Below are positions 1-59,130 of a stretch of DNA of 59,130 nt, piece by piece (positions within the stretch are counted from its first letter, which is position 1; the number at the start of each line of letters is the position of its first letter). The stretch lies in the IMG/VR virus record IMGVR_UViG_3300024581_000422, positions 1 through 59,130 of that record; one strand, given 5' to 3'. This stretch comes from a virus. The notes beneath the pieces are model-generated. The model made no database searches. It worked only from the letters and a program-made list of their open reading frames with translations, and was not told the DNA's origin. Both the position numbers and the translations under genes were made by a program.

Positions 1-99
1 TTAATTGATAATCAATAAGTTAAGTAAAATAAAGTCAGCATAAAGTCAACACTAACTCAACACTATTATATATAAAGTCTACACTATTGGTAAAAAAAA
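1..99. repeat. Terminal exact direct repeat, left copy (identical to 59032..59130)
   Basis: Base-by-base comparison: ttaattgataatcaataagttaag...ctattggtaaaaaaaa occurs at both window ends. Confidence 0.95.
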
Positions 100-658: not shown

Positions 659-675
659 ATAAAAAAATATTAGAT

Positions 676-785: not shown

Positions 786-797
786 GGCTTTTTGTAC

Positions 798-1018: not shown

Positions 1019-1228
1019 AATAGTCTATTCAAAGAGACAAAATGCGCTCTAAATACGCTGTTTACAAGCATTTAAACGCTAACAGAGAGACGATAACCTC
1101 ACAGCGAGCGAGATTAGCCCAAAAAAAATGTCTCTTCAGACTAAACTTTTTTTTACTGAGAATCAATGAGTTATGAAGGCGAAATCTAACTTTAGCTATT
1201 ACCTATTCTTTAGAATCAAGAATTAGAC

Positions 1229-6835: not shown

Positions 6836-7903
6836 ATGTGTGTAATTATAATAAAACAACAAGACAAGATAGTATCATATGATACATTAAAGAATTCAGC
6901 AAGATTAAATCCTCATGGCTTGGGGATTGTGTGGCTTGACACATTTGATGTCACGTATCACAAGTCAAATGAGTATGCGATATTGGATACAGACAGACCA
7001 TACATCGCACACTTTAGATATGCTACGATAGGTGTGGTAAGCAAGGCGAACACGCATCCCTTTGTGTGTGGTAGAAACACGGATGAGATGCTTATGATGA
7101 ATGGTACAATACGAGGGTATGGGACCAAGCTAATGACAGACACAGAAGACTTGGCTATACAATTAGGCAAGATGCCAAGACACGAATGGAAATCATTCCT
7201 ATCTAAATTTGATGCGAGATTCGTATCTGTAAACCTACGGAATAAAACATTCCAAATATACAACAGACATCTGTACACACTCGTGGATGGGGTATGGTAT
7301 TCAAAGACCAATGTACTACAGGAGAATGTGGTTGCGGTGTATGGCACACTAAAGAAAGGATTCAATAACTACAATCACTATCTTACATCATCTACGTATG
7401 TGGGTAGAGGTAAGACACAGGACAGGTATCCGTTAATAGTGAAAGGATTGCCATACCTAATCGAGAAGAAAGGACAGGGGACCAATGTGATTGTAGATGT
7501 ATTCAAGGTATCTGATGGAGTAATGAATAACTTGGATGCGCTTGAAGGTCATCCCAATTGGTACATACGCAAACAGATACCAATCAATATAGGTGGGAAG
7601 ACTATCATAGCTTGGATATATTTCAATCCTTCAGCAGAGGAAGATTGGAATGGACGCAATCACGTGGAGAGCTACGAGCAATACAATCTTTGGAAGTATC
7701 GTGGGTATGAAGATATGATGGGAGAAGAACAAGAAGAAGATAACACGTGCGCTCAGCATGAACTATTCGACACAGAAGAAGATGGCGACGGTGTATGTGT
7801 GTATTGCAGTCACGACCTACAGCACGATGGATTTCAGAACTATTACTGTTCAGCGTGTGATAGTTGGTTTATTGAGAATGATGTAAATGTATTAAAGAGA
7901 TGA
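6836..7903 (+). CDS. Fusion: Ntn (class II) glutamine-amidotransferase-like domain + gamma-glutamyl cyclotransferase (AIG2/GGCT-like) domain + C-terminal zinc ribbon
   Basis: Start reset to the ATG giving Met-Cys (MCVIII...). GATase motifs: NPHGLGIVW, HFRYATIG..NTHPF, MMNGTI. GGCT motifs: VAVYGTLKKG...LDALEGHPNWY. Zinc ribbon: CVYC...CSAC. Confidence 0.7.
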   Translation: MCVIIIKQQDKIVSYDTLKNSARLNPHGLGIVWLDTFDVTYHKSNEYAILDTDRPYIAHFRYATIGVVSKANTHPFVCGRNTDEMLMMNGTIRGYGTKLMTDTEDLAIQLGKMPRHEWKSFLSKFDARFVSVNLRNKTFQIYNRHLYTLVDGVWYSKTNVLQENVVAVYGTLKKGFNNYNHYLTSSTYVGRGKTQDRYPLIVKGLPYLIEKKGQGTNVIVDVFKVSDGVMNNLDALEGHPNWYIRKQIPINIGGKTIIAWIYFNPSAEEDWNGRNHVESYEQYNLWKYRGYEDMMGEEQEEDNTCAQHELFDTEEDGDGVCVYCSHDLQHDGFQNYYCSACDSWFIENDVNVLKR

Positions 7904-18434: not shown

Positions 18435-18450
18435 TCTCTTTGAAGAGACT
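18433..18450. terminator. 18-bp perfect palindrome agtctctttgaagagact between the two convergent arms (candidate bidirectional terminator/boundary)
   Basis: Overlaps the + strand stop (18432..18434) and the - strand stop (18450..18452). No flanking T-tracts. Confidence 0.5.
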
Positions 18451-24400: not shown

Positions 24401-27400
24401 GGATACCATCAAGCCTTGACTCTTCAATAGTATTGTCGTCAAACGCCTTTACATCAGCCTTGTTAGGTCTTGCAATAGGTGTCGGGACTACCTCAGTCTC
24501 AGTCTCAACCTCAGCCTCAGTCTCAACCTCAGTCTCAGTCTTAACCTGTATATTGTTTTCTGTTTTTACAGGAGACTCTTTAAAATTAGCAGCATCAACT
24601 GATGTACCTGTACCTATTATTATATCATATGTAGGTCTTTCAACAAGCTTTCCGTCTACTACTCTTTTTGGCTTTACAATTGTTTTTACAATCTTAACAC
24701 CTTCAGGGACTTGGTCGCTTTCTTCTATTCTATCTACATCTACTAATTCACCTTTTTCAATTCTTCTTCCAAGCTCCCCATCAAATATGTATCCATCTGC
24801 TTCAAGCTCTGCCTTCCGCTGCTGATACCAACGCATATCTTCTTGAGTTAAAGCCTCATTAGCTAATATGGCATTTTGCATAAAGTTCTTAAGCAATAAT
24901 GCCTTACTTTTTGAGTCTGTAGTATTAGCCCATTGTGCTTTTATGTTGTCAACTCTTTTCTGTAATTTATTTTTCTGAGTCTGTGTTGCAGCCTCTTGTG
25001 CTTTTGGAGTCCTAACCATTGTAACACCATCCTCCTGCATCTCAAATCCATTACGCTCGTATAGTTCCTGTAATCGATTTGCATCTACAGTGTTATCCTT
25101 TGGTACTACTTTCAGTGTAACCTTCTTCCCACCACTGTCAGCCTTCTGTGTAATCTTATTGATTGCAGCCTCAGCCTTTCCTTGACCTTTCTTTCCTTCC
25201 TCTGTTTCTATACTCTCTAATGTGACACCTGTCTCATCTTCAGTTAGTATAACCTTGGTGCCATCCATGTCAACTTCTACACCACCCTCCATTACGTCTT
25301 CAAGAGAAGTGGTCTCACCTAATCCTTCAGCAAAAGATTCGGTCACATCTGTCTCAACATCTACATCAGCAGTCGTCTTACCTTCTGCCTTTAACGCTTC
25401 TGTAATCTTTTGTTCTACTATGCCCTGCGTCTCAGCATCATTGTTAATAATTAAATTGGTTTTTAGTGCCTGCTCAGGAGTAAGCTTTTGCATCTTAGAC
25501 AGAAACTGTTTTTTGCTTAACTCCTTGCCATTGATAGCGTAGTATGGTGATGCATCATCCAATACACTTCTATATGATATGTCAAGCATTCCTTCAAGAT
25601 TAACCTGAGCCTCTTTGCTTGCAAGCTCTCCTGTGCTGACTGTCTCTGCTATCTCGTCATTTATGTTCTTTATCTTCTCACTAAACAGCTCTCTGCTATT
25701 TGTTGTAGATGAAAGTTTTTCTTTTGCGGCTAACAGCTGCATTACCCTTGTCTCTACTTCAGTAGAAGCATCTTCATTCCCACTGACCTCTAATAGGCTC
25801 TTTGCCTCTCTCCTGCGACCTACATTCTTTTGAATTTCTTGGTTTTGTTCAGAGGTAATCTTCCCTAACCTGTGCATCTCATTTGCCCACTCACTTATCC
25901 TGCTGTCGGTCTCTCCTACATTATTAAACTCAGATACATTAGAAAGTCTCTGTGCAAGACTAAGATTCTTCTTTCCTCGTATGTCACTATACATATTAAT
26001 GGCACCTGTTGTATACGATATAGGATTTGCAAATGGCATAAATAAGCCACCTATCACCTCAGATATTATCTCCTTTCTATTTGTCTCTTGACCTGACACC
26101 TTCTGCGCCAAGAACTCTCCACTTCCCTCGAATAATGGGTTTACAAGAGCCTGCTCTGCAGTTAATACACCAAGCTTTGTAGCTCTCGATGACAGTGGTT
26201 TCGCTCTAAATATTCTACCCGCCAACGATGTCTGTAATAATGATATTGCACCAATTGTCAGACCTCTCTTTAATCCTATCTGCTTTCCTTCTTCCCATAC
26301 CGCATCGTCATCAAGAGCCAATTCCATTTGGTCCGGGTCGAGCACATCATACCCTTTTTTTCTTGCCGCATCCATCACAGCATTGGTGTACTCAAGTGCT
26401 ACGATTGTAGTAGAAAATCCAAGCTGTGCCCCTCTACCTAAACCTACAACCCCTGCCGGCAATGCACCCGGTCCACCTGTTGCTGCAGCCCCATATGCTG
26501 CACCCATACCAAACCCCGTAGCAGCAAATGCAGGTATAATAATCGAACCGTATGGTAGCATCTGCGTGAGACTCTCTGCTGCCAAAGATATACCAACCTC
26601 AAATGGTTGGTCATAGAATGCATCTAACTCTTCTGCAAATGTCCTTCCTTTCTGATACCTATAAAAGCCTCTTCCCTCCTTTCCTGTTTGAGCTTCTGCC
26701 GCATACTTAGCTATAGCTTCAGCTGCCTCTTTTGCGGTACTGTTCTCGTCTATATCTTTTAATCCTAATGATATGGCAAGGATGATATATCCAATATTCC
26801 CATTAGCCAATCCCCTCTTATATGAATTTGACACAGCCTCTAAGTTTTCTACCCACTCATCCATTACAGCCTTGTCTGCTTTTTTATTAAACCACGTGTG
26901 TGCTATATCATATCTATTTGCAGCCTCTTGTCTTTTTATTTTTAGTATGTCATATTCTGTGTTGAATTTATCTACAAACTCAGCTTCTTGTTCTGTCTTA
27001 GGCTCATACAATGCAACCTCATCTGCAGTCAATCCAAGTGTATTGGTAGAAAGCTCATTCATTGCTTCCATGTATAGGTCCACCTCTTTTCTTTCATCTA
27101 TTGCTATAGCTCCATTTACAGCATACATATCCTGCAGGTATTTATCAAAGTCCTCTCGAACCCTTTGAAACTCATCTTGGTTTACAGACCCTCTTAGTAT
27201 AGCAGCTTCTTCCTTTAACTCTTTTAATACCTCATTTGCATCTGTACGCTTCTTTCCGTTGATATATAGGAATCCCATCTTCTCTTTCATCGCCTGCTGT
27301 TCTTCTAAGCCCCCTTCCTCGCTGTAGTCCTGTTGGAATTCATACATTGGTGAGTTTTCAATGGCAACAATCTTGTCCATTAAATCCTCATATTTATTAT

Positions 27401-28829
27401 ACATATCCATGTAGGCATTGTAGTCTAATCCTCTCTTCTTATAGAACCTATCAGCCTCTACATCTACTGCAGATATATCTTTCCATGAGCCATTAACTAA
27501 ATCTTTTGCCTTCTCTTCAGAGTCTACAGAGATAACCTCTCCTCTTACTACTGCCTCAAGATATGCCTCGTCTGCATCTAATAGCATCCATTCAGATGGG
27601 TCTGTGCTATAGTCTGTTGCAGCATTTTTAGGGAATAGTGTGGGGTATACAATAAAGTTCCCATTAGGCATCTCTCTATATGTAAGCTCTAATGTGCCTA
27701 CAGATAAGTCATCTAATTGCGTATAGTTCTTACGCATAGTCTGTAACCTTACCGCATTGGTAATATCATCAGTAACCTCAGGTTCAACTCCTGCAGGTAC
27801 TGCATTGTTTATTATAAAAGACTTTAGCTTTGCTGTCTCATCACGAGTCTTTATTTTTTTTGTTGTGCCTGCTGCCAATGGCTTTAGTTCTATGACTTCT
27901 GTCGCACCATTGTCTGTTGATATGACTTCTATAGCATTTAATGTAAATGACTTTGGTATAATCGCACTAAATAATCCAACATCCCTAAATACAAATCCAT
28001 ACTTACCATACTTCTCTGTAAGCAAGTCTATCGCATCACTTGAATTGTAGTCTATGACATCTTCTGTGATTGATGCTATGTCATTTTGAAATTCTTCTGA
28101 TAGTATGAGCTTTTCTTTCTGCTGTATTTTCTCTAAAGTTTTTTTGTCAGCCTCTCTTTGCTCTTCTCCTTTTCTTTGTATAAGTTCGCCTTCTTCTTTT
28201 AATGTGACACCTTCGGGTCTTATAATGTTATCAGCACCCGGCACATCGATATATTCATCTTGTAAATATTCAGGCGATACCTCACCTCTCTGCCCATAAA
28301 ACATTGATTCAAATGACCCTTGTGCAGGTGGTGCAGGCGGTTTTGGCGGACCCGGAGGTGCAGGTTTACTTGCAAAATCAGGAGGCATTATATTGGCAAC
28401 ACCCGGTGTATCGACATATTCATTTGGTTGGTCTTCTTCTTTCTCTCTTCTCTTCTTCTCTTCTTCTATTTTACTTTTCAAAAGCGGAGCTGCTTGTGAT
28501 ATATAATCCCAATCTACTTTTTTATCTAAAGTGTTGTCAGATAATACTGTACCTTCTACGTTCTCAGTCTCTGACGAAGCCAAAGAACCATCTTCCGAAG
28601 GTGATACCATACCTTCCTCTTTTTTTTTTACATCAGGTATAGCTGTATCTGCCCAAGCTGCTTTGAATTTATCAACAGTAGAAGTTTTAAATAAACCATT
28701 AGATTTACCTATTTCAAAAAGCTTCTCTTGTTGTGTTGAATTAGCAGCCTTCCATTTTTCAAAAGAAGTTTTATTCGTTATTATTCCCTCGTCAAGGTAA
28801 AGATTATATAATTTTTCTAACTTATCCAT
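18450..28829 (-). CDS. Giant 3459-aa virion/ejection-type multidomain (polyvalent-like) protein
   Basis: Uninterrupted ORF at the end of the structural operon. HEFGH zincin motif (nt 22548..22562). Gly/Ala-rich hydrophobic segment (PAFAATGFGMGAAYGAAATGGPGALPAGVVGLG). GNAT-like patch (..KKGQGKAEAAI...LQELYERNGFEM). Long coiled-coil stretches and C-terminal hydrophobic segments. Confidence 0.85.
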   Translation of the reverse strand: MDKLEKLYNLYLDEGIITNKTSFEKWKAANSTQQEKLFEIGKSNGLFKTSTVDKFKAAWADTAIPDVKKKEEGMVSPSEDGSLASSETENVEGTVLSDNTLDKKVDWDYISQAAPLLKSKIEEEKKRREKEEDQPNEYVDTPGVANIMPPDFASKPAPPGPPKPPAPPAQGSFESMFYGQRGEVSPEYLQDEYIDVPGADNIIRPEGVTLKEEGELIQRKGEEQREADKKTLEKIQQKEKLILSEEFQNDIASITEDVIDYNSSDAIDLLTEKYGKYGFVFRDVGLFSAIIPKSFTLNAIEVISTDNGATEVIELKPLAAGTTKKIKTRDETAKLKSFIINNAVPAGVEPEVTDDITNAVRLQTMRKNYTQLDDLSVGTLELTYREMPNGNFIVYPTLFPKNAATDYSTDPSEWMLLDADEAYLEAVVRGEVISVDSEEKAKDLVNGSWKDISAVDVEADRFYKKRGLDYNAYMDMYNKYEDLMDKIVAIENSPMYEFQQDYSEEGGLEEQQAMKEKMGFLYINGKKRTDANEVLKELKEEAAILRGSVNQDEFQRVREDFDKYLQDMYAVNGAIAIDERKEVDLYMEAMNELSTNTLGLTADEVALYEPKTEQEAEFVDKFNTEYDILKIKRQEAANRYDIAHTWFNKKADKAVMDEWVENLEAVSNSYKRGLANGNIGYIILAISLGLKDIDENSTAKEAAEAIAKYAAEAQTGKEGRGFYRYQKGRTFAEELDAFYDQPFEVGISLAAESLTQMLPYGSIIIPAFAATGFGMGAAYGAAATGGPGALPAGVVGLGRGAQLGFSTTIVALEYTNAVMDAARKKGYDVLDPDQMELALDDDAVWEEGKQIGLKRGLTIGAISLLQTSLAGRIFRAKPLSSRATKLGVLTAEQALVNPLFEGSGEFLAQKVSGQETNRKEIISEVIGGLFMPFANPISYTTGAINMYSDIRGKKNLSLAQRLSNVSEFNNVGETDSRISEWANEMHRLGKITSEQNQEIQKNVGRRREAKSLLEVSGNEDASTEVETRVMQLLAAKEKLSSTTNSRELFSEKIKNINDEIAETVSTGELASKEAQVNLEGMLDISYRSVLDDASPYYAINGKELSKKQFLSKMQKLTPEQALKTNLIINNDAETQGIVEQKITEALKAEGKTTADVDVETDVTESFAEGLGETTSLEDVMEGGVEVDMDGTKVILTEDETGVTLESIETEEGKKGQGKAEAAINKITQKADSGGKKVTLKVVPKDNTVDANRLQELYERNGFEMQEDGVTMVRTPKAQEAATQTQKNKLQKRVDNIKAQWANTTDSKSKALLLKNFMQNAILANEALTQEDMRWYQQRKAELEADGYIFDGELGRRIEKGELVDVDRIEESDQVPEGVKIVKTIVKPKRVVDGKLVERPTYDIIIGTGTSVDAANFKESPVKTENNIQVKTETEVETEAEVETETEVVPTPIARPNKADVKAFDDNTIEESRLDGILSAIADKNIAGKKLTKFQERVAEKHKTRVSELEILKQDVASLEADLEERLGSDEVQFQLSEGKTEDNVIDKKTKEAKKLFSELDKQESSGETVVVEEPTVEPTPITVEENLSLVEKIKRFKLKELVGKKINLLMADKLKVELKDPTKPHNPDTNPYVKMGGNFFPLMEGLFGKVAWASIKDVAATKIIKGAMDADYSVVYNMGNGGIMSNIIIAEMVNEKIPDNQKDKIFNLIKDKVKESKLTDVKKAKKHLDGATDIMSFFKALQENEGVKTRAAVMELILPETLDVKTDIKLSQELISLGIARDVLIDETSEGFTKDLKTGALTMVVEITNKDGVKVSELKRQLDERLKKKEITQKEYNKGINDIIASAKISEEEAQAEGMQIHPNYPFYIRGRAVALMEDTAPFYRVTDYYSNQLQERAVGLEKKRSGKVKYNANKAETEVFEKIQEAKSDKVKKADKLKLIEEILASDAFAKLNARDRKIMKPLLEEALQLNNNDKIKNLLKEAELPLAKMVNYSKAEAISAAGTSAMTTSSTAYQISELNPTPWEIFLERLTKAFPTVEVITSQQEFDELTKNLWVKELLTKDQTVYGAVYEGKLYLNGRVENFNTPIHEFGHIWINTAKQASPELYNKGMELISQDETYINQIKNSSDYKRIITKMREAGATEEEIDTYIKEEALATAIGDKGESFVNASVSRDFKQWLVDLYKNIQKLFGISEYTAEQLENITLDEFLQAVTVDLLSGKELFKGQDVSALSSTLQLMTGDNASAESIVSLGRELGYPNDAIKAILQNRGFDASTIKSALEIDIDLFNKMPYEFGNINEGAREGLKLFNDVKDKLQRFARQGKSLIEIRQKAQDILKAHPLFKSQIERIQLELQNAIDRDLKINRGPKISKEIGGIRKRIADIKRGQRNIKAAQTELKNAIRQKLVGIKNVSKSSVNKINKLITQATPENVEGITNLIFAEIDTMVDAQQAESLRQSTLEFNRKVRAEDKVRRDVRNFQQEIRRVIRKSFAEMTKDTPIKVREFRVATINRLNKILNETNDQNYTEQLTKVLDELDNSREQVKKKLINEIKDTVKVKVKKTRSGKLSASGVDVRGKSYLDAVSRVLKLAMNGDVDGIINLMNSIDENEYNTALDKDERGQKLTKKELDILNLRDAIDSYADIVNMDLEQVKLLLDDLKNTRAESIKNFNTRRKMRRQLSESIKEQFKTQISKDFSELYDEDGQRKSDTQLKRDRKPIMQAFIKDGFLETLKDFKARVTENLKYKTGALAMFMKENMFNLDLITQRLDRNTNGLFTEFFYNSLLDMENNALLGYFTQEKVLDGITNRLANKEWNKWKYSLGNDVITLDGIISVQEDTSKEPFSVELNRDQAMALYALTLNDTQREKLNNQGLDDAKILQLKEFIGEDNIAIIESTVDYLSNPYFESVNNVFMQANDISLRQIENYFPTQTDVSATNSEDLFSGDFFKVFNAEWQSALKERTAKVGDVVMNRSFTQTLEKHFRDMERFKAYALGVKTMNQVYKSPDIQTLLDMSGYKNIFQQMLNYGINPNATPEIKRGGKLLTWAQNTFSGIVLAFKPIQALKQTTSFMLPLGDYQFRKGKSTPIVDFFTFMYDYADVLANRKKNVAEAMDMSGIFAERYRKGMKGDLLAIESGQRTYRPVLEAQGKRGAVARALSRAKAFFTSYGDINGVLGYKARFNRDIKNGMSKAEALRRFNQFDSTQQAQQNVNKIGLQQSNNPLVKGVTMFGSASFLLLNNTMKYAGRIINGKATYSDYKNFLLNAVVANVLYTTASYSMALLFGDKDDREYALKQILASGNPLTLLYRLPLVGAGLESGIAAYRGEYFSRDSMKNPYSDFAQKIAKALKDVDAYEGTKILLEIGTASPMDPAEGIFNIATGEGEMDDVFKIMGVAKSYRPGYATKEKTKEKPKGEPKKKKSSGLNLTKKEREALGLPELPELPKMSDDLPKLPTLEDMMED

Positions 28830-34128: not shown

Positions 34129-34362
34129 TTATTCTTCAATAGTTGTCCACTCAGGACCGCTTACAATAACCAACATCTCTTCTTTTGTATAAGGCGTTAG
34201 ACCTTGCGGGGCTATACTCTCCTTAAACATCATTATACCCTTGGTGTCATCCAAAGACATCCGTATGTATATGTGTTGGCTACCAAGGCTTTCAATCATA
34301 AGATTCTTATATCCATCGATGTCATCCTTTAGTACAATATAATATCTCAAATCATCTATCAT
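34129..34362 (-). CDS. Hypothetical protein (77 aa)
   Basis: ORF track. ATGA-type overlap with the 1761-aa gene. Confidence 0.55.
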   Translation of the reverse strand: MIDDLRYYIVLKDDIDGYKNLMIESLGSQHIYIRMSLDDTKGIMMFKESIAPQGLTPYTKEEMLVIVSGPEWTTIEE

Positions 34363-37300
34363 GTCGGGTAGTTTACTTCATCTAAATTAGCTGCACTCAT
34401 ATTGAATGGCGTTCCATCATTAGTTCCAATTATATCATTGACAATTGTTGTAGGGTCATCACGCTTGTCCATCGCCCAATGGCTCACAATATCAGAAGCA
34501 AAGCTTGCCGTTGTGATGTCGATAGGTAGACCACCGTTATATAACTCTGTCACCTCGGCAGCACTCAACTCTTTTCCAATTACCGAAAAATGGTTTGCGT
34601 TTCCGTCAATGTAGTCCGCACCCATAAACTTTAAGGAAGCTGAAGTATTTATCATACCCGTATATGTGCCTGCGTTTTGATTTGCATTGTCAACTTGTAC
34701 GTCATTAATGTATATCTTCATGCCGGCACTTGTTTTTGAACCGTCATATGTACACACAATATTCAACCATGTAGACAAATCTCCACCTGCCAAAGTATTA
34801 TACCTCCTCCCTATCCTGTTGGATGGATTGCTTAATAGTTCAAACAATAATACCCCACCTGACGTTAACCTTATTCTATATTCGTTTGTTTTGTTAACAA
34901 TCATACCGTTAAATGTTGAACCAAATGAGTCTAAATACACCCAAGTTGATAGACTAAAAGCTTGGTCGGTTACACCATCGCCAAAGCTCAAGTCATCAGC
35001 GTCAGGAACTTCAACAAATTGATTGATTCCGTCAAATATAAAACTTGCCTGTAGTGAACCATCACTGCACTCACAGCATACTGCAAATGTTGATGCAGCA
35101 TCATAGCATAGCTCTATCTCTGTAGGCTTTCTATAGTTATATATTAAGTATAGATACTCATCTGAACTGCTCGGCATTGTAAACTCTGCAGTGTACGTAT
35201 TAGCACCATTGGTTGGCACAACAGGCGTAGCATTGATAGATGCATTAAATAGTGCCTGCATCTGTGCAGGTGTATTTGCATAATACGTATTGGTACGCAA
35301 GTATCGTAACTCATCTGTACTCGGGTTATATACATAGTCGTCTGAGCCAATCTTGTTGCTTATAATACTTACAGTTGCACCATCTGCAGGAATAAATCCT
35401 GAGCCTTGTGGACCTGTAATCTGTGTGTATTGCGAGATAAGTGGATTAGATGTACCCGATGCTAACTCTACTTGCTCGCTGTGTAATGGCGATACATATG
35501 TGCCATCTACCCAACTGTACTCATTATGAATATACTGACCTCCATCAACATCAAGAGAGTAACATACCTGAATAATTTTTAGCTCCTGTGCAGCAGGACA
35601 GTTTACAGTAATCTCTAAGTGAGTTGTTCCCTGAGAGAATATCTGTACATTGACAATATTCTCAGATACAGTATCCTTGTCTACAATCAATGCACCTGAA
35701 GATGTCTGCTCACCTGTAGTGTCTACAACACCATTATATGTCGCCTGAACTTCAAATGCACTCTGACCATCTCCTAATACATTGTATTGGATAGATACGT
35801 CTCCTACCAAGAATCCTACATCAACACAGAACGATACACTTTCCTTGCTATCTACTACAAATGAACGTGATATACCGCACTCAATACACTCTTGAATAGA
35901 TGGAAGTAACTCTAAGTTAGAGCTAAGCACATACTCGCCCATATATGGGTCATACCCTCCAAGCTTCTGAGTATTAAAAGATTCAAGGAACAAGTCTCTA
36001 AACCAAGACCTCATCCCAATATTAGATATAACAGATAGCGACTCGCCTTGCCCTGCACCTGTAAGCATTAATACAGCACCACGCTTGGCATCTGTAAAGT
36101 ATTTGTATGGTCCCCATTTAGCAAAACTCTCGGGATGGAAGCTTATACCATACTCTTCTATACGTGCAACCTGCTGTCCTAACACCTCAGGGATTGATGC
36201 AACTTGTCCACCTCCTGTAGAATCTGTAAGAATATTCTTGCCTTGCAGTACATATGATATTTTATCTTCTTGGAATGTAAGGATGTCAGTCTCTCTCCCA
36301 TCGATAAGATATATCGGTCCGTATCTTTCCTCTAATGGCTTAAAGTTTAATAGCCCTAAGTTGAACTCATTTAACTTATTCACATTAGACTCATCATTGT
36401 ATACACCACTATACGTCAGGTCAGCATATCTCCTTACCTCCTGATAGTCTTGTGCAGATGTAGATGTCACCCTGTTACCTAACGACAGGTCTCGTTTACC
36501 AATCGCATCCATAATAACATAGCTTTCAATGCCATTACCAAATGCGTAGCAATTAAAGAAATCTGTACGTACATTTGCCTGTGAAAATGCAGGAAAGCGA
36601 TTCCCTGTATGTGTGCCTATCGGAAGTGCTGTAGTTATAATATCTATATTGTTAGGGTCTACAGGTGGAGTAGATGGGTCTGTAGTTATACTGCTACACA
36701 CACCGTAGAATGGAGATAATCCATCTGTTACAATAGTACCATCATTTGGTACTATAACAGACTGCTCTATCCCATCTATATCTATATAGTTGAACTGTAT
36801 AGGTGCAGGTTCAGGTGGATTAACTCTCAAATAAAATTGACATATACCACTCTGTGTTACAATAGGATATGACTCAGATGATTCATACCATACATCAGGA
36901 AGTGCATCCTGAGGCTCTGTCTCAAATGCAATAAAATTTGCACCTCTGTATACAACTATCTGAACTTCTAACTTTGTCTTTCTCTTTTTAGTTCCTGCCT
37001 GACCTTCTGAAGACTTTACAACAAAAGAATTTCTTCCTGTTGTTGGATGAGGCATTATAGTAGATGATATACTTCCCGGTTGACAAGACCCTATACCACT
37101 TGGATTGTATGCCGGACCTGTACAGTTATCTGTAGTAGCCAATGCTTCTAATGCTATATCTATATTCTCTCCCTCAAACCAATTCTCAAAGTTAGGATAG
37201 TCTGATGTTACAGTAAATGTATGGTCTACAAACCACTCTCTACGTGATGTATTTCCTTTGCCTTCTCTAAGGTTGTTTATATATATCCTAACTCGAGTTC

Positions 37301-39644
37301 CTTCGGGAAGTTCGTAGTCAGTATATACTCCCGGAGAGTCTTCAACATCTATCGGATACAATACATCATTACATCCCTTTCCAAATACAGACTGTACCCC
37401 GTAGTCTATGATATTATTCTCAACATTAGATACAGCAAACTCATTTGCCTTAATCTTCATGTATACACCCTGTGGCACAGTAGTGTCGGGTACGGTAATA
37501 AAGTCCTCTTGTTGAGACTGTTTTTCTAATACAGTGGCAGATACACATCTTTCTAATGTACCATTTGAATCTACTTTTACTCTTAGAATATCACCCTCGT
37601 CAATCTTCTGAGCGTTCTGACCTTCAAGTAAAAAGTAGCTATCTGATGTAATAGGGTCTGTAAAAAAGAAACGTGAGTACACATTAAAATAATTCTCTTT
37701 GTCAGGCTTGATACAGAACTTGTATCGTGTTGCCCATGCAGGTGCAATCTGTGATGATGGAATATTTACAACTATATGATTTGCTAAGTCAGATGCTGAG
37801 CATGGCACGTATACCGTGTTCTCTGTACTTACCAATGCTGTTGTGCTCCTGCCATACTCATCCATGTATATCATGCCAACCTCATAGCTCCTGTCGCTAT
37901 GCAAGCTTGTAGGTGATGCTACCTTCTGAAATGTTGCATCAGCGGATAATATCTCATAGTATTCAAATGTATAATTTGCAGGATTTGTAGGGTCATCAAA
38001 TCTCATAGCCAACAACTGAAGCCCTATGACTGTAGATGTTGGAGATGAGAATATAGCTATATCGCCTTGTACTGATGTAGGAGGTGTTATTGGAATGCCT
38101 ATATTACTTACAGTCTTATTAAGACCATCCAATGTCTGAGGTATAACACAGTTAAAATCATCAGTGAATGTAACGCCATTACACGCATTTGTTACAGGCT
38201 CTACTCCATTAAGTGATATATCCCCAATCCTGTTCCTAAAGTCTGCACTATTTGCAAGCTCATCAACACTGTTAAAGTTTTGTGTTAGCACATATTGAAG
38301 GCTTATTGTAGTATCCTGTGTGGTCTGTGTAGGCGTGACGGTGCCTGTGAAGCTGTGGTGTGTAAATTGTAATGTAAGCTCAATTGATGAGCCTGCCACC
38401 AAGTCTATACCCGCAAAGTCAATGTCTACCCGACAATTAGAGACAGGATAACCCGGGTTGCCACTGTCAACAAAATAGTCCTCCTCTAATAGTGTTTCAG
38501 TTAAACTTTCTGCCCCAATATCTTCTGAAACTAAATCTATAACGTAGTCTATGCTTGTAGGCTGACCTAATGCATCTATCAAGTCATACTGCTCTAAGTA
38601 GTTGCCATAGAAGAGTCTGCCACCCATAACAGTCTGTGCCTTAGCAAGACGAGGCACATTGTCATATAACCTAAGTATCTCAGATGATGGAAGTACAGTA
38701 TATATCTTGCTGTTGTTAAATGTATATTCATACATCGTATTATCCACAAGTCCTAACTTCTCTTTATCTAACTTTTCAATAACACGGATAATCCCATTTG
38801 TCATGTCTTTCCATAACAAATCTATCCCCACTACTAATGGACCACCTGACATATACTCTATCTTCGCCTGCTGTGCTAAGTTTAGCATACCATCATTTAG
38901 CCCTGTACCATAATTATAGTCAAATGGGCTTGGTATAAATGCAGGCGGTGAGAACTGTGATGTCGCTGAGTATTGACCATCAGCGTATCTATATCTATAT
39001 GCAAAGCATATAAATCTATCCTCAATAAAATTATTCTCAGTTGTCGTAATCTGAGGTGTTACATTGGGTGATGTCAGTGGTGGCTTCTTTATTACAAGCA
39101 ATGCCTCTGCACTTACACCATCTACCCCTGCCGATGGATTATCATAGTTCCTATCTATATTTATACATCTCGGAGGATTTATGTCATCGGTAAAAAATAA
39201 TAGCTTTTCATCCACAAGGTCCACACCTGTAATAAGATATGTAGGATTAAAGTTTAGTGTGGTATTAGAACTACCCCCATCATTAATACTAATAACGTGA
39301 TACGTCAGTGTGTTAACCTGCACATTAAATGATACGATAAGGTCTAATTTTCCTGTCGGGCTTGGTGCAAAATTAGAGTCGTGTATAAACCAATATATTG
39401 TCTCGTTTGCTCCATCTTCATATGCACCAATACATCGAGCGTCATCGCTTAGAGATGTGCCATTATACTGTAGGTCTGTTAGCTGTGTGTTCCCTTTGGT
39501 GTTTTCTAATGAACCAATATCAGAATTCTCAGTAGAACCTAACCGTATATTTAATGCATCAACATATTCTCCCGCAGGTAAAAGTCTCTCATCGATACTT
39601 TTATTCATTATCCCACGTATAAAATTTCTTTCTATATTAGCCAT
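34359..39644 (-). CDS. Large tail/nozzle-fibre protein (1761 aa) with a C-terminal LamG/concanavalin-A-like lectin domain
   Basis: C-terminal FDGINQFVEVPDADDLSFGDG..AFSLSTWVY......NIVCTYDGSKTSAGMKIYINDVQV is a Laminin_G_3-type pattern. The N-terminus is typical of large beta-rich tail proteins. Confidence 0.7.
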   Translation of the reverse strand: MANIERNFIRGIMNKSIDERLLPAGEYVDALNIRLGSTENSDIGSLENTKGNTQLTDLQYNGTSLSDDARCIGAYEDGANETIYWFIHDSNFAPSPTGKLDLIVSFNVQVNTLTYHVISINDGGSSNTTLNFNPTYLITGVDLVDEKLLFFTDDINPPRCINIDRNYDNPSAGVDGVSAEALLVIKKPPLTSPNVTPQITTTENNFIEDRFICFAYRYRYADGQYSATSQFSPPAFIPSPFDYNYGTGLNDGMLNLAQQAKIEYMSGGPLVVGIDLLWKDMTNGIIRVIEKLDKEKLGLVDNTMYEYTFNNSKIYTVLPSSEILRLYDNVPRLAKAQTVMGGRLFYGNYLEQYDLIDALGQPTSIDYVIDLVSEDIGAESLTETLLEEDYFVDSGNPGYPVSNCRVDIDFAGIDLVAGSSIELTLQFTHHSFTGTVTPTQTTQDTTISLQYVLTQNFNSVDELANSADFRNRIGDISLNGVEPVTNACNGVTFTDDFNCVIPQTLDGLNKTVSNIGIPITPPTSVQGDIAIFSSPTSTVIGLQLLAMRFDDPTNPANYTFEYYEILSADATFQKVASPTSLHSDRSYEVGMIYMDEYGRSTTALVSTENTVYVPCSASDLANHIVVNIPSSQIAPAWATRYKFCIKPDKENYFNVYSRFFFTDPITSDSYFLLEGQNAQKIDEGDILRVKVDSNGTLERCVSATVLEKQSQQEDFITVPDTTVPQGVYMKIKANEFAVSNVENNIIDYGVQSVFGKGCNDVLYPIDVEDSPGVYTDYELPEGTRVRIYINNLREGKGNTSRREWFVDHTFTVTSDYPNFENWFEGENIDIALEALATTDNCTGPAYNPSGIGSCQPGSISSTIMPHPTTGRNSFVVKSSEGQAGTKKRKTKLEVQIVVYRGANFIAFETEPQDALPDVWYESSESYPIVTQSGICQFYLRVNPPEPAPIQFNYIDIDGIEQSVIVPNDGTIVTDGLSPFYGVCSSITTDPSTPPVDPNNIDIITTALPIGTHTGNRFPAFSQANVRTDFFNCYAFGNGIESYVIMDAIGKRDLSLGNRVTSTSAQDYQEVRRYADLTYSGVYNDESNVNKLNEFNLGLLNFKPLEERYGPIYLIDGRETDILTFQEDKISYVLQGKNILTDSTGGGQVASIPEVLGQQVARIEEYGISFHPESFAKWGPYKYFTDAKRGAVLMLTGAGQGESLSVISNIGMRSWFRDLFLESFNTQKLGGYDPYMGEYVLSSNLELLPSIQECIECGISRSFVVDSKESVSFCVDVGFLVGDVSIQYNVLGDGQSAFEVQATYNGVVDTTGEQTSSGALIVDKDTVSENIVNVQIFSQGTTHLEITVNCPAAQELKIIQVCYSLDVDGGQYIHNEYSWVDGTYVSPLHSEQVELASGTSNPLISQYTQITGPQGSGFIPADGATVSIISNKIGSDDYVYNPSTDELRYLRTNTYYANTPAQMQALFNASINATPVVPTNGANTYTAEFTMPSSSDEYLYLIYNYRKPTEIELCYDAASTFAVCCECSDGSLQASFIFDGINQFVEVPDADDLSFGDGVTDQAFSLSTWVYLDSFGSTFNGMIVNKTNEYRIRLTSGGVLLFELLSNPSNRIGRRYNTLAGGDLSTWLNIVCTYDGSKTSAGMKIYINDVQVDNANQNAGTYTGMINTSASLKFMGADYIDGNANHFSVIGKELSAAEVTELYNGGLPIDITTASFASDIVSHWAMDKRDDPTTIVNDIIGTNDGTPFNMSAANLDEVNYPT

Positions 39645-42434: not shown

Positions 42435-43910
42435 TTAATCTTCGAATAATACGAAGTTGTTAGCACCTAAAGTACAAACAGCTCTCTCAGAAAGGAAGTG
42501 TACTTCCATTGCATCAAGGTCGCTGTTCATAGCTCCACCTGCTGAACCTGTAATCCAAGTCTTGTAACGTCTGTCCTCAGTCTCAGACGCTCGGTAACGA
42601 ACGTGTAAGAATGGACGCTTAGCGTTCTTTCCTAAGATTTGGTCATACACAGATGTTGAACCTGCAGGAACCAATAGACCGTTAATAGAACCTGAGCCAC
42701 CAACACCTACTGCACCAAGGGCTAAACCTCCACGCATAGTTGGGTCGTTCAAGTATTTCCAATCAGTCTTGTAGAAGTCATATCCTCTACGGAATCCTGT
42801 GAATCCTAAGTTCAATGCCATATCTTGGTCATTGTCGAACAATCCGTAAGATGTTCCATTTGCACCGTAAGAGTTTTGAGCAGCTAACATATCGTCAATT
42901 GCAAATCCAAAATCTCTATCTAAGAAGATAACATTCTCTTCGATTGCACCCTGTGCATCAAGACGACCAACGATAGTGTCGAAGTCAGCTAATGCAGCAG
43001 GAACTCCACCTGTCCATAGGTTGCCTCGTGTGCCTACAGTAAAGAAGATTCCTTCAGAACCTTTGTTACCATATGTAGGGTTGATTGCTGCAGTAGCTGC
43101 ACCTGAACCTGCTTCAGCAGGAACTGCTTCTACCATTGCAGTCTCTAAGTAGTCATCGAAACGTAGACGAGTCTCGTGCTCAGACTTCATATACCAAAGG
43201 TATCCTGTAGCACCGTTCTCAGTGGTTACCTCAACCCATCCGATTTGAGCCATGTCAGAACCTGACACTGAATACTTGTCTTTGATGATGATTGGAGAAT
43301 TTTCAAAGATTAGGTCATCAGACTCTAAAGAGCCTTCCATACCTGAAGTACCTTTTCTAAATTCAGAACCATAGATGAATACAGTAACGTCTGCATTTCC
43401 AACACCTGTCCCTGCTGTAACAAGTCCACCTGCCTCATAGAAAGCAACTGTGAATGTTACAGGAGACGCTGTCAAGTCGACATCTGTAACGATACCTTTG
43501 TTCTCACCTGTACCATCATTTTGATGTACTACAACAGTCTGACCTTCTCGCAATGCGATACCGCTTGTAGCACTAAAAGGGTCCGCTGTACTATTTGCTG
43601 CATTAGGGTCATCGTTTACTTGAAATACTGCCTCATCGTCACCTGCTAATGCAGCGGTACCCACGTTTGTATATTTAACGTGAAGTCGTCCCTGCTCAGC
43701 CCACTTGATAAGGTCTGAATTGGAAGGCATCTCTGCGCCTACCATTCTTAAAAATGAACTAATTGTTCTGTTTCCGTAACGCTCGAATTCTTTTTCATAT
43801 GTATCAGGAAGATACTGATTAAAGAAATCGAAGTTTGTAATGTAATTTGTTGCCAACGGCACTTGTTGTGCGGATGGCTGTAGGTCGAAACCCGGTCCTG
43901 TAAATGGCAT
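42435..43910 (-). CDS. Major capsid protein (491 aa)
   Basis: Gene order terminase-portal-scaffold-this gene. Own terminator. Biased, GC-richer codon usage typical of a highly expressed gene. No motif-level proof. Confidence 0.7.
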   Translation of the reverse strand: MPFTGPGFDLQPSAQQVPLATNYITNFDFFNQYLPDTYEKEFERYGNRTISSFLRMVGAEMPSNSDLIKWAEQGRLHVKYTNVGTAALAGDDEAVFQVNDDPNAANSTADPFSATSGIALREGQTVVVHQNDGTGENKGIVTDVDLTASPVTFTVAFYEAGGLVTAGTGVGNADVTVFIYGSEFRKGTSGMEGSLESDDLIFENSPIIIKDKYSVSGSDMAQIGWVEVTTENGATGYLWYMKSEHETRLRFDDYLETAMVEAVPAEAGSGAATAAINPTYGNKGSEGIFFTVGTRGNLWTGGVPAALADFDTIVGRLDAQGAIEENVIFLDRDFGFAIDDMLAAQNSYGANGTSYGLFDNDQDMALNLGFTGFRRGYDFYKTDWKYLNDPTMRGGLALGAVGVGGSGSINGLLVPAGSTSVYDQILGKNAKRPFLHVRYRASETEDRRYKTWITGSAGGAMNSDLDAMEVHFLSERAVCTLGANNFVLFED

Positions 43911-55913: not shown

Positions 55914-56363
55914 ATGCAGAAATACACCCCAACACATGACTACCTAAAATATTGGAAGGTTGTCAGACAATACATAAAGTCACGATACAAGCTTACGCAG
56001 GCAGACCTTGACATACTGCTGTTCTTGCGTACAGAAGACTACTTCTCTAAAGATAAATTTGAAGAGTTTGACAGGCTCCTATCTTGGGATGACAGGAGAT
56101 TTAATAGGCTACTAAAAGATGGATGGATAGAAGTCTTCCGTAAACGTAAAGGTAAACGTAAAGGGCTATACACATTATCGTTTCATGCCAAGCACGTGGT
56201 CGCATCTATATACAGGAAGCTGAATGGTGAAGAGATTCCAATGACAGCAGAACACAATCCTATGTTTTTAAAGAATGTGTCATACTCAGACAAACGCTAT
56301 CGTGAGGCTATCATCGCAATGAATGAGTCTATTCGACAACAACGACATCACGCTCCTGAATGA
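55914..56363 (+). CDS. Putative winged-helix (MarR-like) DNA-binding regulator (149 aa)
   Basis: LTQADLDILLFL...RFNRLLKDGWIEVFRKRKGKRKGLYTLS pattern. It is the only + strand gene inside the - strand arm. Confidence 0.45.
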   Translation: MQKYTPTHDYLKYWKVVRQYIKSRYKLTQADLDILLFLRTEDYFSKDKFEEFDRLLSWDDRRFNRLLKDGWIEVFRKRKGKRKGLYTLSFHAKHVVASIYRKLNGEEIPMTAEHNPMFLKNVSYSDKRYREAIIAMNESIRQQRHHAPE

Positions 56364-56586
56364 TTGTGCACATGGTATTATCTATGGCGAGCGTATATGA
56401 GTTACGCACGTCATAGTATATGATGTCGTTTTCTTTCAGGTGTGGCACATCTGTGCCCGGCATTATCACCCGACCTTTCTGATACCTAAATGACTTCGCA
56501 TCCTCATCCGATAGTAGGATGCCACTCTCGGTTGTTATCTTCTCTTCTATTTTTTCTATTACGATATTTTTTCCTATTGCCTTCAT
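56329..56586 (-). CDS. groES: Co-chaperonin GroES (Cpn10) homologue (85 aa)
   Basis: KAIGKNIVIEKIEE..TTESGILLS......QKGRVIMPG......LKENDIIYY...........IIQERDVVVV follows the Cpn10 pattern along its full length. Confidence 0.75.
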   Translation of the reverse strand: MKAIGKNIVIEKIEEKITTESGILLSDEDAKSFRYQKGRVIMPGTDVPHLKENDIIYYDVRNSYTLAIDNTMCTIIQERDVVVVE

Positions 56587-57239
56587 TATACTTTTTTTGT
56601 GTTATACATATATCTGTCAGTGTCTTCTGTCACCCACTTCTCATACCCCTCAGCATTGAATGTCTGTGTGCACACCTTATAGTCAGGTCGCTCAGGGAAA
56701 TCTTTTGTAGTAAAAGATGGCTCAATCCATCTCACCCTATTGTTTGGCTGTAGTGCAATGTTACCGTTTTGCAACAGGATTATATGGTGCGACTTATGTT
56801 CGTGTGGTGTCTCACTAAGTGTAAGGTCAGCATTCTCGTTTGTGTCACCCGCCCACTGTAGTGTTGCAAAGTATTCGCCATCATACCACATCTTGTCTTT
56901 CATATACACAGATGCAGTCACGCTACCCAAGTAGTTTAGTTGCACTACCGAGAAGTTCTTACTAAAAGAGTTCCATAGGCACAGGTGGTCAAATGCCATG
57001 GCAGGTGCAGTCGTTGGGTCTATCTCTCTGTCGAATACCACAAATGCAGAGCACGGTAGCTTGTCTCTCATCACACCATTCTCAAGTAGCACTTGGAATA
57101 GTGGCACTTGTCCGGGCAAGCACTTTACAGATACCATCCGCCCCCTGTCAAACTCTCCATGGTTAGACTCCATGTCGTATAGGTACTCTCGTCGTACCCA
57201 TACATCTAAAGGAGGAAAACTTGATTCAATGTATGCCAT
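56586..57239 (-). CDS. Hypothetical protein (217 aa) embedded between groEL and groES
   Basis: ORF track. ATG/stop abutting groES. Confidence 0.65.
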   Translation of the reverse strand: MAYIESSFPPLDVWVRREYLYDMESNHGEFDRGRMVSVKCLPGQVPLFQVLLENGVMRDKLPCSAFVVFDREIDPTTAPAMAFDHLCLWNSFSKNFSVVQLNYLGSVTASVYMKDKMWYDGEYFATLQWAGDTNENADLTLSETPHEHKSHHIILLQNGNIALQPNNRVRWIEPSFTTKDFPERPDYKVCTQTFNAEGYEKWVTEDTDRYMYNTKKV

Positions 57240-57249
57240 GTCTTATAAT

Positions 57250-58860
57250 CTAATTAGATGTGTCGTAGCTTCGTGCCATTGTCACAATAGCATTTGTAGA
57301 TAGTATGGTCACTGCAACAGAGACCGCATTCTGTAGTGCCTGACGTGTCACCTTCACCGGGTCTATCACCCCAAGTGACATCAGGTATCCATACCGCTCA
57401 TTCTTCACATCGTATCCCCACGTTGCCCCCTTGCAGTCCTTGTACACCTCAGCAGCATCGAGACCCGCATTGGATAGTATCTGATACAGCGGAGCCTTCA
57501 GTGCCTGAGACAGGATAGCATATGCAGTCTTCTTTGCTACATTCTTCTCTTTGCGTTCCTTGATGGCATAGCTCTTGTGAAGGTTGTATAACGTCAGCCC
57601 ACCACCCGGCAAGATGCCTTCTTCAAGCGCAGAGCGAACCGCACACACCGCATCGTCTACACGGTCATATAACTCTTTCTGCTCGAGGTCTGTCTGCCCA
57701 CCTACGTATACCACACCGATACCTCCCGACAGGGATGCGATACGCTGATTGATAAAGTCCTTGTCTTCTTTTTTCTTTGCATTGCTGTGTGCCTCCTGCA
57801 ACTGCTTCACTCGCTCTTTCACCTCGTCTGATGTCTCCTCGTCGTCCTTCACGATGACAGTTGAGTCCCTGCCAACTATCACCTTGGAACAGTGACCCAA
57901 ATCATCGAATGTGATATGGCTTAGGTCGTCCCCCGTCTTCTCGCTAAAGTATGTAGCCCCAACACTGATAGCTATGTCCTGCATCAGCTCGTGCTGCCTA
58001 TACCCAAAGTCAGGCGGGTTTATCGTACATACCCTAAGCCCATTTTTTATTACGTTGGCTGCAAGCGTGTTCACCACATTCGTTGAACATGGCGCAATCA
58101 TAAGGAGCTTCTTGCCCTCTTGGATGATTGGCTTCAATACGTTTTCTATCTGTAGTATATTGCTTATCTCTGTGTCACACACCAACACATATGTGTCCTC
58201 GAGTACACACTCATCTCTCTTTTGGTCATTGATGAATAATGTAGATGCATACCCACGCTTTATCTTTATCCCCTGTGTCGTCTCGTAGTATGTATCCGAT
58301 GTCTTGCTTTTCTCTACCGTCACCACACCATCACGCCCTATGCTCTCATACACATCTGCTATAATGCCGCCTATGTGACCATCATTATTCGCTGAGATAA
58401 TCGCAACATCTCGCAGCTTTCGACTGTCTAAGGTCTTGCCTTTTAGCTTTAACATATTCGATATACTCTTGGTCTCGTCTACCATGTGTCGTAACACCTC
58501 TGTTCGATTGACCATATCGCCAATCATGTCGGTGCCTGCATTGACCAATGCTTCTGCCAATACAATCGCAGTCGTCGTGCCATCACCCGCAGATGACGCA
58601 GTCATGTCCGCAGCCTCCTTCATCATCCGAACCGCAAGGTTCTCGACCGGGTCAAGTAATGAGATTGACTTCGCTACAGTCACGCCATCCTTCGTTACCG
58701 TAATGCCATGTAGATGTTCAGGCGACTCTATCAGTACCGTATTGCCTCGTGGTCCAAGTGTGGACTTGACAGCATTGGAAATCTTGTTGATGCCATTGAT
58801 TAGTTTACTTCGTCCACCATCTGAGAAGTGGAGTTCTTTAGGAGTGAATCCCTGTTGCAT
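57250..58860 (-). CDS. groEL: Chaperonin GroEL (Cpn60) homologue (536 aa)
   Basis: KELHFSDGGRSKLINGINKISNAVKSTLGPRGNTVLIE, ITVTKDGVTVAKSI, AGDGTTTAIVLAEAL, PGGG. Start set to ATG 58860 (MQQGFTPK). No C-terminal GGM repeat. Confidence 0.95.
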   Translation of the reverse strand: MQQGFTPKELHFSDGGRSKLINGINKISNAVKSTLGPRGNTVLIESPEHLHGITVTKDGVTVAKSISLLDPVENLAVRMMKEAADMTASSAGDGTTTAIVLAEALVNAGTDMIGDMVNRTEVLRHMVDETKSISNMLKLKGKTLDSRKLRDVAIISANNDGHIGGIIADVYESIGRDGVVTVEKSKTSDTYYETTQGIKIKRGYASTLFINDQKRDECVLEDTYVLVCDTEISNILQIENVLKPIIQEGKKLLMIAPCSTNVVNTLAANVIKNGLRVCTINPPDFGYRQHELMQDIAISVGATYFSEKTGDDLSHITFDDLGHCSKVIVGRDSTVIVKDDEETSDEVKERVKQLQEAHSNAKKKEDKDFINQRIASLSGGIGVVYVGGQTDLEQKELYDRVDDAVCAVRSALEEGILPGGGLTLYNLHKSYAIKERKEKNVAKKTAYAILSQALKAPLYQILSNAGLDAAEVYKDCKGATWGYDVKNERYGYLMSLGVIDPVKVTRQALQNAVSVAVTILSTNAIVTMARSYDTSN

Positions 58861-58883
58861 ATGTATTAAATTTAATTGTACCA

Positions 58884-58891
58884 CAAAGGTA
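58884..58891 (-). promoter_or_regulatory. -7 box TACCTTTG (- strand), 24 nt before the groEL ATG
   Basis: Exact TAnnTTTG match, inside the inverted repeat tgtacc-acaaa-ggtaca (58885..58901). Confidence 0.45.
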
Positions 58892-59031
58892 CACTATTAT
58901 ATTTAATTATGCAAACTATTTTTTTTGTGTCGTCTTCATGCGTCCCTATACTACTACTACCCTTTTTTATTATTATTGTTTTTTATTAATACGAGGCTTT
59001 TAACTTAACATCTTAACATTTTTTTAATTAA

Positions 59032-59130
59032 TTAATTGATAATCAATAAGTTAAGTAAAATAAAGTCAGCATAAAGTCAACACTAACTCAACACTATTAT
59101 ATATAAAGTCTACACTATTGGTAAAAAAAA
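59032..59130. repeat. Terminal exact direct repeat, right copy (identical to 1..99)
   Basis: See 1..99. Confidence 0.95.

Follow-up and report, generated by a model that had tools for sequence, protein, structure and literature searches.

A conserved groEL-groES operon in an uncultured aquatic phage, with a probable cargo gene of the "purM"-labelled family between the chaperonin genes

The 59,130-nucleotide (nt) sequence of the IMG/VR virus record IMGVR_UViG_3300024581_000422 (positions 1 to 59,130; this whole stretch is called the window below) carries a GroEL gene and a GroES gene on its minus strand, with a 217-amino-acid (aa) gene, referred to here as X, between them. This locus raises the question of whether a phage chaperonin pair of this kind is a rarity recently captured from a cellular genome, as a sequence-only reading of the window had suggested, and of what X contributes at such a position. 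Our analysis identifies the locus as a new, uncultured representative of a type of phage chaperonin operon that is already known. Taking the evidence as a whole, the explanation we consider probable is that of a conserved operon of long residence, in which X is horizontally acquired cargo.

All three open reading frames (ORFs) were recovered as one tight operon on the minus strand: groEL at 57250..58860 (536 aa), X at 56586..57239 and groES at 56329..56586 (85 aa). The earlier remark that the start and stop of X abut its neighbours is accurate: the ATG of X lies 10 nt past the groEL stop codon and its TAA overlaps the groES ATG by 1 nt (junction TAATG), so the three genes form a single translationally coupled unit. 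The closest homologues of X are found in a different type of phage, as would be expected if the groEL-X-groES arrangement were an assembly chimera. However, two independent contigs from two other metagenomes (L180 and L181) match this arrangement at 96-98% identity (groEL 96%, X 97%, groES 96-98%), in an identical order extending to the convergent gene ORF149 (98%) beyond groES. Moreover, the junctions are precise, in-frame and gene-dense, and X shares 79.8% nt identity with the copies of the other phage type. The reproduction of the arrangement in L180 and L181 rules out a chimera, the probability of which we consider negligible. There was no record of the exact window X sequence in the contig index.

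The earlier identification of the flanking genes as encoding Cpn60 and Cpn10 was confirmed by matches in Pfam, NCBIfam and PHROG. The groEL product gave a full-length match to the Cpn60_TCP1 domain (PF00118; E-value (E) 1e-59, 203 bits, cutoff 34.3), scored 496.7 bits against the NCBIfam GroEL subfamily NF009487 (cutoff 352) and matched phrog_5725 (E 3.7e-130), but it fell below the cutoff for the cellular GroEL equivalog (TIGR02348; 462.2 bits vs 582.1), indicating that it belongs to a diverged viral subfamily. The motifs AGDGTTTA and LGPRGN are present, and RVDDAV aligns with the equatorial Asp (E. coli D398 region). The C-terminus, read directly, is IVTMARSYDTSN (MARSYDTSN) and has no Gly-Gly-Met (GGM) repeat tail, as had been noticed previously. 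The ATG at 58860 is favoured over a GTG at 58884 as the start codon, because relatives align from residue 1; the GTG extension would pass through the -7 box described below. The best PDB match was a reconstructed ancestral chaperonin of the Fibrobacteres-Chlorobi-Bacteroidetes (FCB) group (391 bits, 41% identity), with 330 bits obtained for E. coli GroEL and 115 bits for gp146 of Pseudomonas phage EL. The groES product matched Cpn10 (PF00166) with 40.1 bits (cutoff 21.1) over profile positions 3-91 of 93, and also phrog_3188, but was below the NCBIfam equivalog cutoffs (32.6 vs 109). Its mobile loop is kept, S-G-I-L-L aligning with the E. coli sequence G-G-I-V-L (Gly and three hydrophobic residues), whereas the roof beta-hairpin of E. 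coli GroES is removed by a 9-residue deletion common to all aligned relatives. The description of this protein as a full-length Cpn10 therefore holds relative to the viral subtype, but not by comparison with E. coli GroES. By analogy with T4 gp31 and with the proposal of Marine et al. 2017 (ISME J, PMC5649160), the tail-less GroEL and the roof-less GroES would probably provide large virion proteins with a more spacious folding cage.

A GroEL/GroES pair in a 59-kb phage had been considered uncommon, a view contradicted by the number of relatives found. The window GroEL had relatives in 436 IMG/VR stretches. The layout was read in the best 80 of these (64-86% identity), 79 of which had groEL followed by groES and a homologue of ORF149 convergent with it; in the remaining one, L035, a contig of 4.1 kb, neither groES nor ORF149 was matched. 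Two scans seeded from more distant lineages yielded about 120 more loci with the groEL>groES layout, a minority having no detectable groES match. GroEL relatives were also present in 257 phage records, 73 of them from Flavobacterium phage, most of which are ~60-kb Elemovirus podophages with groES directly after groEL. The nearest deposited genome was MW202828 (60.85 kb), with a GroEL 60.6% identical to that of the window and the gene order groEL-cpn10-"repressor". Apart from this metagenome-assembled genome, no GroEL more than 37% identical to that of the window was found among the phage records, and none in a cultured phage. MW202828 was likewise the sole, and distant, relative in a nucleotide search of phage records, with DNA similarity over the portal gene (annotated as P22-like in MW202828) and the terminase gene. 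Virome GroEL>GroES clades with roof-less GroES clusters and podovirus-like structural genes were described by Marine et al. 2017. This report and the conserved synteny establish the pair as a standard feature of an already described phage group. In our reading, the operon is a conserved feature of long residence in aquatic podovirus-like phages with genomes of ~60 kb, which together make up a large clade and have Bacteroidota as their most likely hosts.

The sequence-only reading had linked a GC (guanine plus cytosine) excess in the groEL region to recent capture. The excess itself is real when GC and codon usage are computed: groEL has a GC content of 47.9%, versus 38.9% for the genome, and GC at third codon positions (GC3) is 0.534 for groEL (z-score 2.5), 0.472 for X and 0.488 for groES, versus 0.374 +/- 0.064 for the other genes. 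Such values, together with a best solved-structure match to a reconstructed FCB-group ancestor, would be consistent with recent capture of the groEL/groES pair, with or without X, from a Bacteroidota genome, leaving a GC-rich island. We judged the origin of GroEL from bit scores and from identities to PDB chaperonins and phage contigs. Identity to the ancestral chaperonin is only 41%, the GroEL equivalog cutoff is missed, and identity to GroEL is 64-86% in no fewer than 80 phage contigs, in which the synteny is the same. Furthermore, in 78 of 82 relatives the GC content of groEL exceeds that of the flanking sequence (by a mean of 4.7 points), so the excess is common to the relatives rather than a mark of recent arrival. 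Members of the viral clade also have derived features in common, namely a gene order reversed with respect to the bacterial groES-groEL order and the loss of both the GGM tail and the roof hairpin. Recent capture is therefore effectively refuted, and we consider it most improbable; groEL plausibly derives from an old capture from the FCB group.

The 270-nt region upstream of groEL (23% GC) contains TTTG-N20-TACCTTTG, ending 23 nt before the ATG. On the minus strand, the -33-like element TTTG (58912..58915) lies 20 nt 5' of the -7 box TACCTTTG (TAnnTTTG; 58884..58891). A TAnnTTTG box at -7 with TTTG at -33, at a spacing of about 19-21 nt, is the sigma-ABfr-type promoter consensus of Bacteroidota (Bacteroides, Flavobacterium). 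The TAnnTTTG motif is not enriched in the window (66 found vs 59 expected) and the composite TTTG...TAnnTTTG is not above chance (2 found vs 1.9 expected), so a lone occurrence in the window proves nothing; it is conservation in the relatives that rescues the promoter. Among the 94 related loci with enough upstream sequence for comparison, 85 have a TAnnTTTG box before groEL, at a distance of 16-35 nt (most often 22-26 nt), within sequence that has otherwise diverged. The box had thus been correctly recognised, and its conservation supports the prediction of TTTG...TAnnTTTG as the operon's own Bacteroidota-type promoter, from which groEL and then groES would be transcribed as a viral group I chaperonin operon. 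The conserved -7 footprint also provides indirect support for a Bacteroidota host. A scan for sigma-70 promoters and terminators gave background levels. The leader (58861-58883), like its equivalents in L009-L088, is A/T-rich, with AATTAAAT-like repeats between the -7 box and the groEL ATG, and no Shine-Dalgarno sequence is evident in the groEL leader of the window or of these relatives. The window ends with an exact copy of its first 99 nt (1..99 = 59032..59130, no strand assigned; 99/99 identical by blastn of the window ends), indicating a circularly closed genome of ~59.03 kb (about 59,031 bp), such that the region upstream of groEL runs on into the window start. Across this circular junction, upstream of groEL and on the same strand, lies ORF 670-1071 (minus strand, 133 aa), the sole other gene as GC-rich as groEL (49% GC, GC3 0.52); it had no match in PHROG or PADLOC.

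At the other end of the operon, ORF149 (55914..56363, plus strand) is convergent with groES, the 3' end of which it covers over 35 nt. It encodes a putative winged-helix (MarR/SarA-like) regulator, with matches to phrog_17028 (E 4e-12), to phrog_12817, labelled "transcriptional regulator" (E 4e-4), and to TIGR01889 (E 1.6e-4, below cutoff). A convergent homologue was found in nearly all the related loci checked (the best 80 from IMG/VR, L180 and L181), and the counterpart in MW202828 is annotated "repressor protein". ORF149 may regulate or terminate the chaperonin operon.

The chaperonin genes have the same order in nearly all the relatives, and the variable part of the locus is the junction between them. 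Across the relatives, groEL and groES are from -13 to 1838 bp apart. The genes found in this interval are unrelated to each other. They encode homing-endonuclease-like proteins (NUMOD4+HNH_3+AP2, HNH and GIY-YIG+HTH), a 185-aa 2-oxoglutarate (2OG)-Fe(II) oxygenase, proteins with WDGH or RyR domains, others with a Zn ribbon, and membrane (transmembrane) peptides. Such cargo was seen in L036, L040, L049, L050, L270, L307, L374, L375, L378, L382, L385, L388, L389 and others. X occupies the junction only in the window, L180 and L181, and is absent from it in every other relative surveyed. Homing endonuclease genes that stand free beside conserved genes are known to promote local gene turnover, and they are its likely cause at this junction. 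The short groEL-groES junction is a hypervariable slot for free-standing homing endonucleases and cargo genes, and it illustrates clearly how such enzymes would, in nature, drive an insertion hot spot.

X itself appears to have come from elsewhere. Its nearest homologues (90-92% aa and 79.8% nt identity) are found in ~65-kb phage contigs, in the order nrdB-nrdA-X-SET; these contigs (L003-type) have nothing else in common with the window. The window copy differs from that of L003 by 98 synonymous and 18 non-synonymous codons, indicating that X is under purifying selection and that the transfer was not very recent. Elsewhere, X is found before thyX, near a pyrimidine-dimer glycosylase gene, in the replication/nucleotide module of Immutovirus, 70 kb from the Immutovirus GroEL gene, and adjoining denV, mazG, 2OG oxygenase or SET genes in cyanomyophages. 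The cyanomyophages with X have no gp31-type chaperonin genes (Sullivan 2005). In the X tree, the copies of three GroEL-phage lineages (those of the window, L228 and L195) are not monophyletic, and the window copy groups with phages in which X has a ribonucleotide reductase (RNR) context. The position of the nearest homologues in unrelated phages, the non-monophyletic copies, the cyanomyophages lacking chaperonins and the 70-kb spacing in Immutovirus together make it likely that X is cargo rather than part of the chaperonin. X would have been gained horizontally from an unrelated phage, and would now be co-transcribed and translationally coupled with the chaperonin genes. Three options had been proposed for X, a dedicated client, a specificity factor or an unrelated moron, and the last is the best supported.

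Several observations weigh against X being cargo of this kind, and would fit a working chaperonin part instead: a client, a specificity or lid-modulating cofactor, or an assembly factor, with selection for stoichiometric co-expression. X is translationally coupled in the operon and GC3 is elevated in all three operon genes, indicating that X either came to match the operon after its arrival or was acquired together with it. X also lies less than 2 kb from groEL in three GroEL-phage lineages, at three sites and by apparently independent acquisitions. In GroEL phages of the L228 type, it is divergent from groEL and 14-93 bp upstream of it; this holds for five of the six loci with a GroEL at least 90% identical to that of L228, L311 having no X. 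The difference between L311 and L310 and L312-L315 (GroEL 93-94% identical to that of L228) implies that X was gained or lost there very recently. Phages with a portal-X-Cpn10-like-scaffold-capsid order have an X that shares 88-89% identity with the L228 copy. In the L195 type, X lies 1.5-1.9 kb upstream of groEL. In addition, 29 of 80 other IMG/VR loci with X have a Cpn10-like ORF downstream of it, at 0.1-2.5 kb, albeit with a PF00166 match below the Pfam threshold (E 0.0045), and in Cellulophaga phage phi38:1 a short ORF separates the chaperonin genes (Marine et al. 2017, PMC5649160). The several independent gains beside chaperonin genes are suggestive of a possible functional link.

These points have to be set against about 200 related groEL>groES operons without X, and against a slot that holds many unrelated genes, homing endonucleases included. 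X is common in cyanomyophages without phage chaperonins, it occurs in RNR, ThyX and replication contexts, and GroEL and X are 70 kb apart in Immutovirus. No X was found near groEL in distant members of the window, L228 and L195 lineages. The proximity could also result from permissive insertion sites at module boundaries, or from recombination anchored on the conserved chaperonin genes. The surveys were centred on groEL or X, with flanks of a few kb, and an excess of X-chaperonin proximity is consequently not quantifiable from them. On balance, we consider it unlikely that X is a working part of the chaperonin, and retain the cargo interpretation.

The sequence-only reading had recognised no motif in X, a fair statement with respect to domain databases: X has no sequence match in Pfam, NCBIfam, PADLOC or the PDB. 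Nevertheless, X is not an orphan, but a full-length member of phrog_3704 (E 2.2e-66, residues 1-216 on profile positions 1-213 of 223). There are relatives in 112 phage records, among them those of cyanomyophages, pelagiphages and Flavobacterium Immutovirus, and in more than 590 IMG/VR contigs, and the family comprises 1069 clusters at 50% identity, nearly all of stand-alone proteins of ~210 aa. The window X is ~40% identical to the cyanomyophage copies. The names given to family members include PurM, phosphoribosylaminoimidazole synthetase, ferredoxin (RefSeq, PHROG), transcriptional regulator and hypothetical protein. This virus-specific and strongly conserved family corresponds to the gene called "purM" in cyanophages by Sullivan et al. 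2005 and 2010. In pelagiphages, purM belongs to the accessory genes and occurs in 45% of HTVC023P-type genomes, and phage purM has been used as a marker of purine synthesis in ocean metagenomics.

Product names in GenBank/RefSeq for cyanophages and pelagiphages, the PHROG label "ferredoxin" and the treatment of the gene as purM in the literature would make X either PurM, the aminoimidazole ribonucleotide (AIR) synthetase encoded by a purine-biosynthesis auxiliary metabolic gene, or a ferredoxin. The sequence and structural results contradict both names. Among 95 diverse family members, there were no Pfam matches at E <= 0.01, including to AIRS (PF00586), AIRS_C (PF02769) and Fer2/Fer4, and there was no NCBIfam match to X. 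A profile of the family searched against the PDB retrieved no PurM or ferredoxin chain at E <= 10. No conserved set of Cys residues was found, only C40 being kept in the close X subfamily and none in the broad alignment. In a pattern-limited scan of 185,579 species genomes, relatives of X were present on just nine contigs, all from metagenome-assembled or single-amplified genomes and none from a cultured isolate. Finally, PurM is a protein of ~345 aa with an alpha/beta fold, whereas X has 217 aa and an all-beta model. The chance that either name is right is very slim: X is neither PurM nor ferredoxin, the labels failing every test run here. Our literature search found nothing relevant on misannotated purM, nor on phage SET plus Tudor proteins. 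The marine "purM" gene serves as an ocean-survey marker of viral purine synthesis, and conclusions resting on this label deserve re-examination.

The AlphaFold2 model of X obtained from a deep alignment (predicted local distance difference test score (pLDDT) 92.4) is essentially all-beta. For both X models, the top Foldseek matches in the PDB were tandem or triple Tudor proteins (53BP1, SETDB1, FXR2, UHRF1 and Spindlin), and these matches were weak (E 4e-3 to 5e-2, template-modelling (TM) score 0.20-0.34, root-mean-square deviation 13-14 A). A fold search of BFVD with X returned uncharacterised viral homologues. The safe reading of these models is that X would consist of tandem SH3/Tudor-like barrels without a solved equivalent. 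The most conserved positions are G55, W89, F48, P62, Y123, K149, G159, P165-N166-N167-R168, E197 and Y212. One family member, P0174 (585 aa), contains a LAGLIDADG intein placed exactly between the N and the C/S of the motif W-N-C/S-F-S, corresponding to residues ~89-91 of the window X. The insertion site reads LQLW(N/D) before the intein and C-F-S after it, and the intein begins with CYDAETEV and ends with ICGN immediately before the C. Ten longer family proteins were checked for fusion partners, and only the intein and one sub-threshold ankyrin match were found. We also considered X as a prohead protease, as it lies between the portal and scaffold genes in some phages; this candidate was rejected because X occurs in many other modules and no protease fold was found. 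A small SET-domain methyltransferase gene lies directly beside X, upstream or downstream, in at least four unrelated phage lineages (L003-L008, 8745-9116; L096, 2642-3013; L097, 1969-2343; L110, 3637-4020). This adjacency is intriguing in view of the weak tandem-Tudor matches of X, but a SET gene was found near X in one of the 80 IMG/VR X loci, and there is none in the window.

The most frequent neighbours of X in other phages (RNR, ThyX, MazG, DenV, DNA polymerase and primase), the intein and the fold class lead us to propose, tentatively and at less than even odds, that X is a nucleic-acid- or nucleotide-handling accessory protein, the role of which would be independent of the chaperonin. 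That this role is inferred from neighbourhood, an intein and a fold class with weak matches counts against this part of our interpretation. X could alternatively be a tandem-barrel protein working with phage chaperonins, and not a purine-synthesis enzyme; it might, for example, deliver clients, confer specificity or itself be an obligate client. Such a partnership, which we regard as improbable, would explain the repeated independent landings of X beside groEL or groES. In either case, the occurrence of the family beside chaperonin and SET genes, and the intein at its most conserved motif, provide handles toward its real function.

Outside the operon, the window encodes a portal protein, the large terminase subunit, giant virion proteins, a primase/helicase and a helicase. 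A further virion protein, of 491 aa, is encoded at 42435-43910. Two of its ORFs are exceptionally long, 18450-28829 (minus strand, 3459 aa) and 34359-39644 (minus strand, 1761 aa), the latter matching a virion structural protein PHROG; it is conceivable that their products are large clients or assembly partners of the phage chaperonin. ORF 6836-7903 (plus strand, 355 aa) contains a gamma-glutamyl cyclotransferase-like domain (phrog_2520, E 1.6e-22).

The locus is thus an ordinary member of a described class, its phage GroEL/GroES pair being neither rare nor recently captured, and it is useful chiefly for what was noticed along the way about the "purM" family. The window X resembles the cyanophage and pelagiphage "purM" products in being a full-length member of phrog_3704, but its position inside a chaperonin operon is new. 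The closest parallels for the operon itself are the GroEL>GroES operons of Marine et al. 2017, from aquatic phages, which likewise have groEL first, as in the window, where it lies upstream of groES on the same strand, and a roof-less GroES. They also have podovirus-like genes and a conserved downstream ORF (homologous to an Oxic3_1 fosmid protein), ORF149 following groES in the window. The window differs in having a 217-aa phrog_3704 gene between the chaperonin genes, and neither the hypervariability of the junction nor its wealth of homing endonucleases was part of the description by Marine et al. 2017. MW202828 (Caudoviricetes sp. ctfjg026, Manatee Spring) and Elemovirus resemble the window in genome size (~60 kb) and in having groES right after groEL, and MW202828 additionally shares the convergent "repressor" gene and the portal/terminase DNA similarity; unlike the window, they have no gene between groEL and groES, and GroEL identity is 60.6% and 36.6%, respectively.

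More distant comparisons concern other phage-encoded chaperonins and co-chaperonins. The T4 protein gp31 has little sequence similarity to GroES, whereas the window groES product still matches Cpn10. Like the window groES product, T4 gp31 and CocO of RB49 are viral GroES-type lids without a roof hairpin, but T4 uses the GroEL of its host and the window phage encodes its own. According to Marine et al. 2017 (PMC5649160), the roof-less lid of gp31 and CocO would give the major capsid protein a larger cage in which to fold. Gp146 of Pseudomonas phage EL is, like the window groEL product, a phage-encoded GroEL homologue; it differs in working without a co-chaperonin, in belonging to a jumbo phage and in being very divergent from the window GroEL (115 bits).

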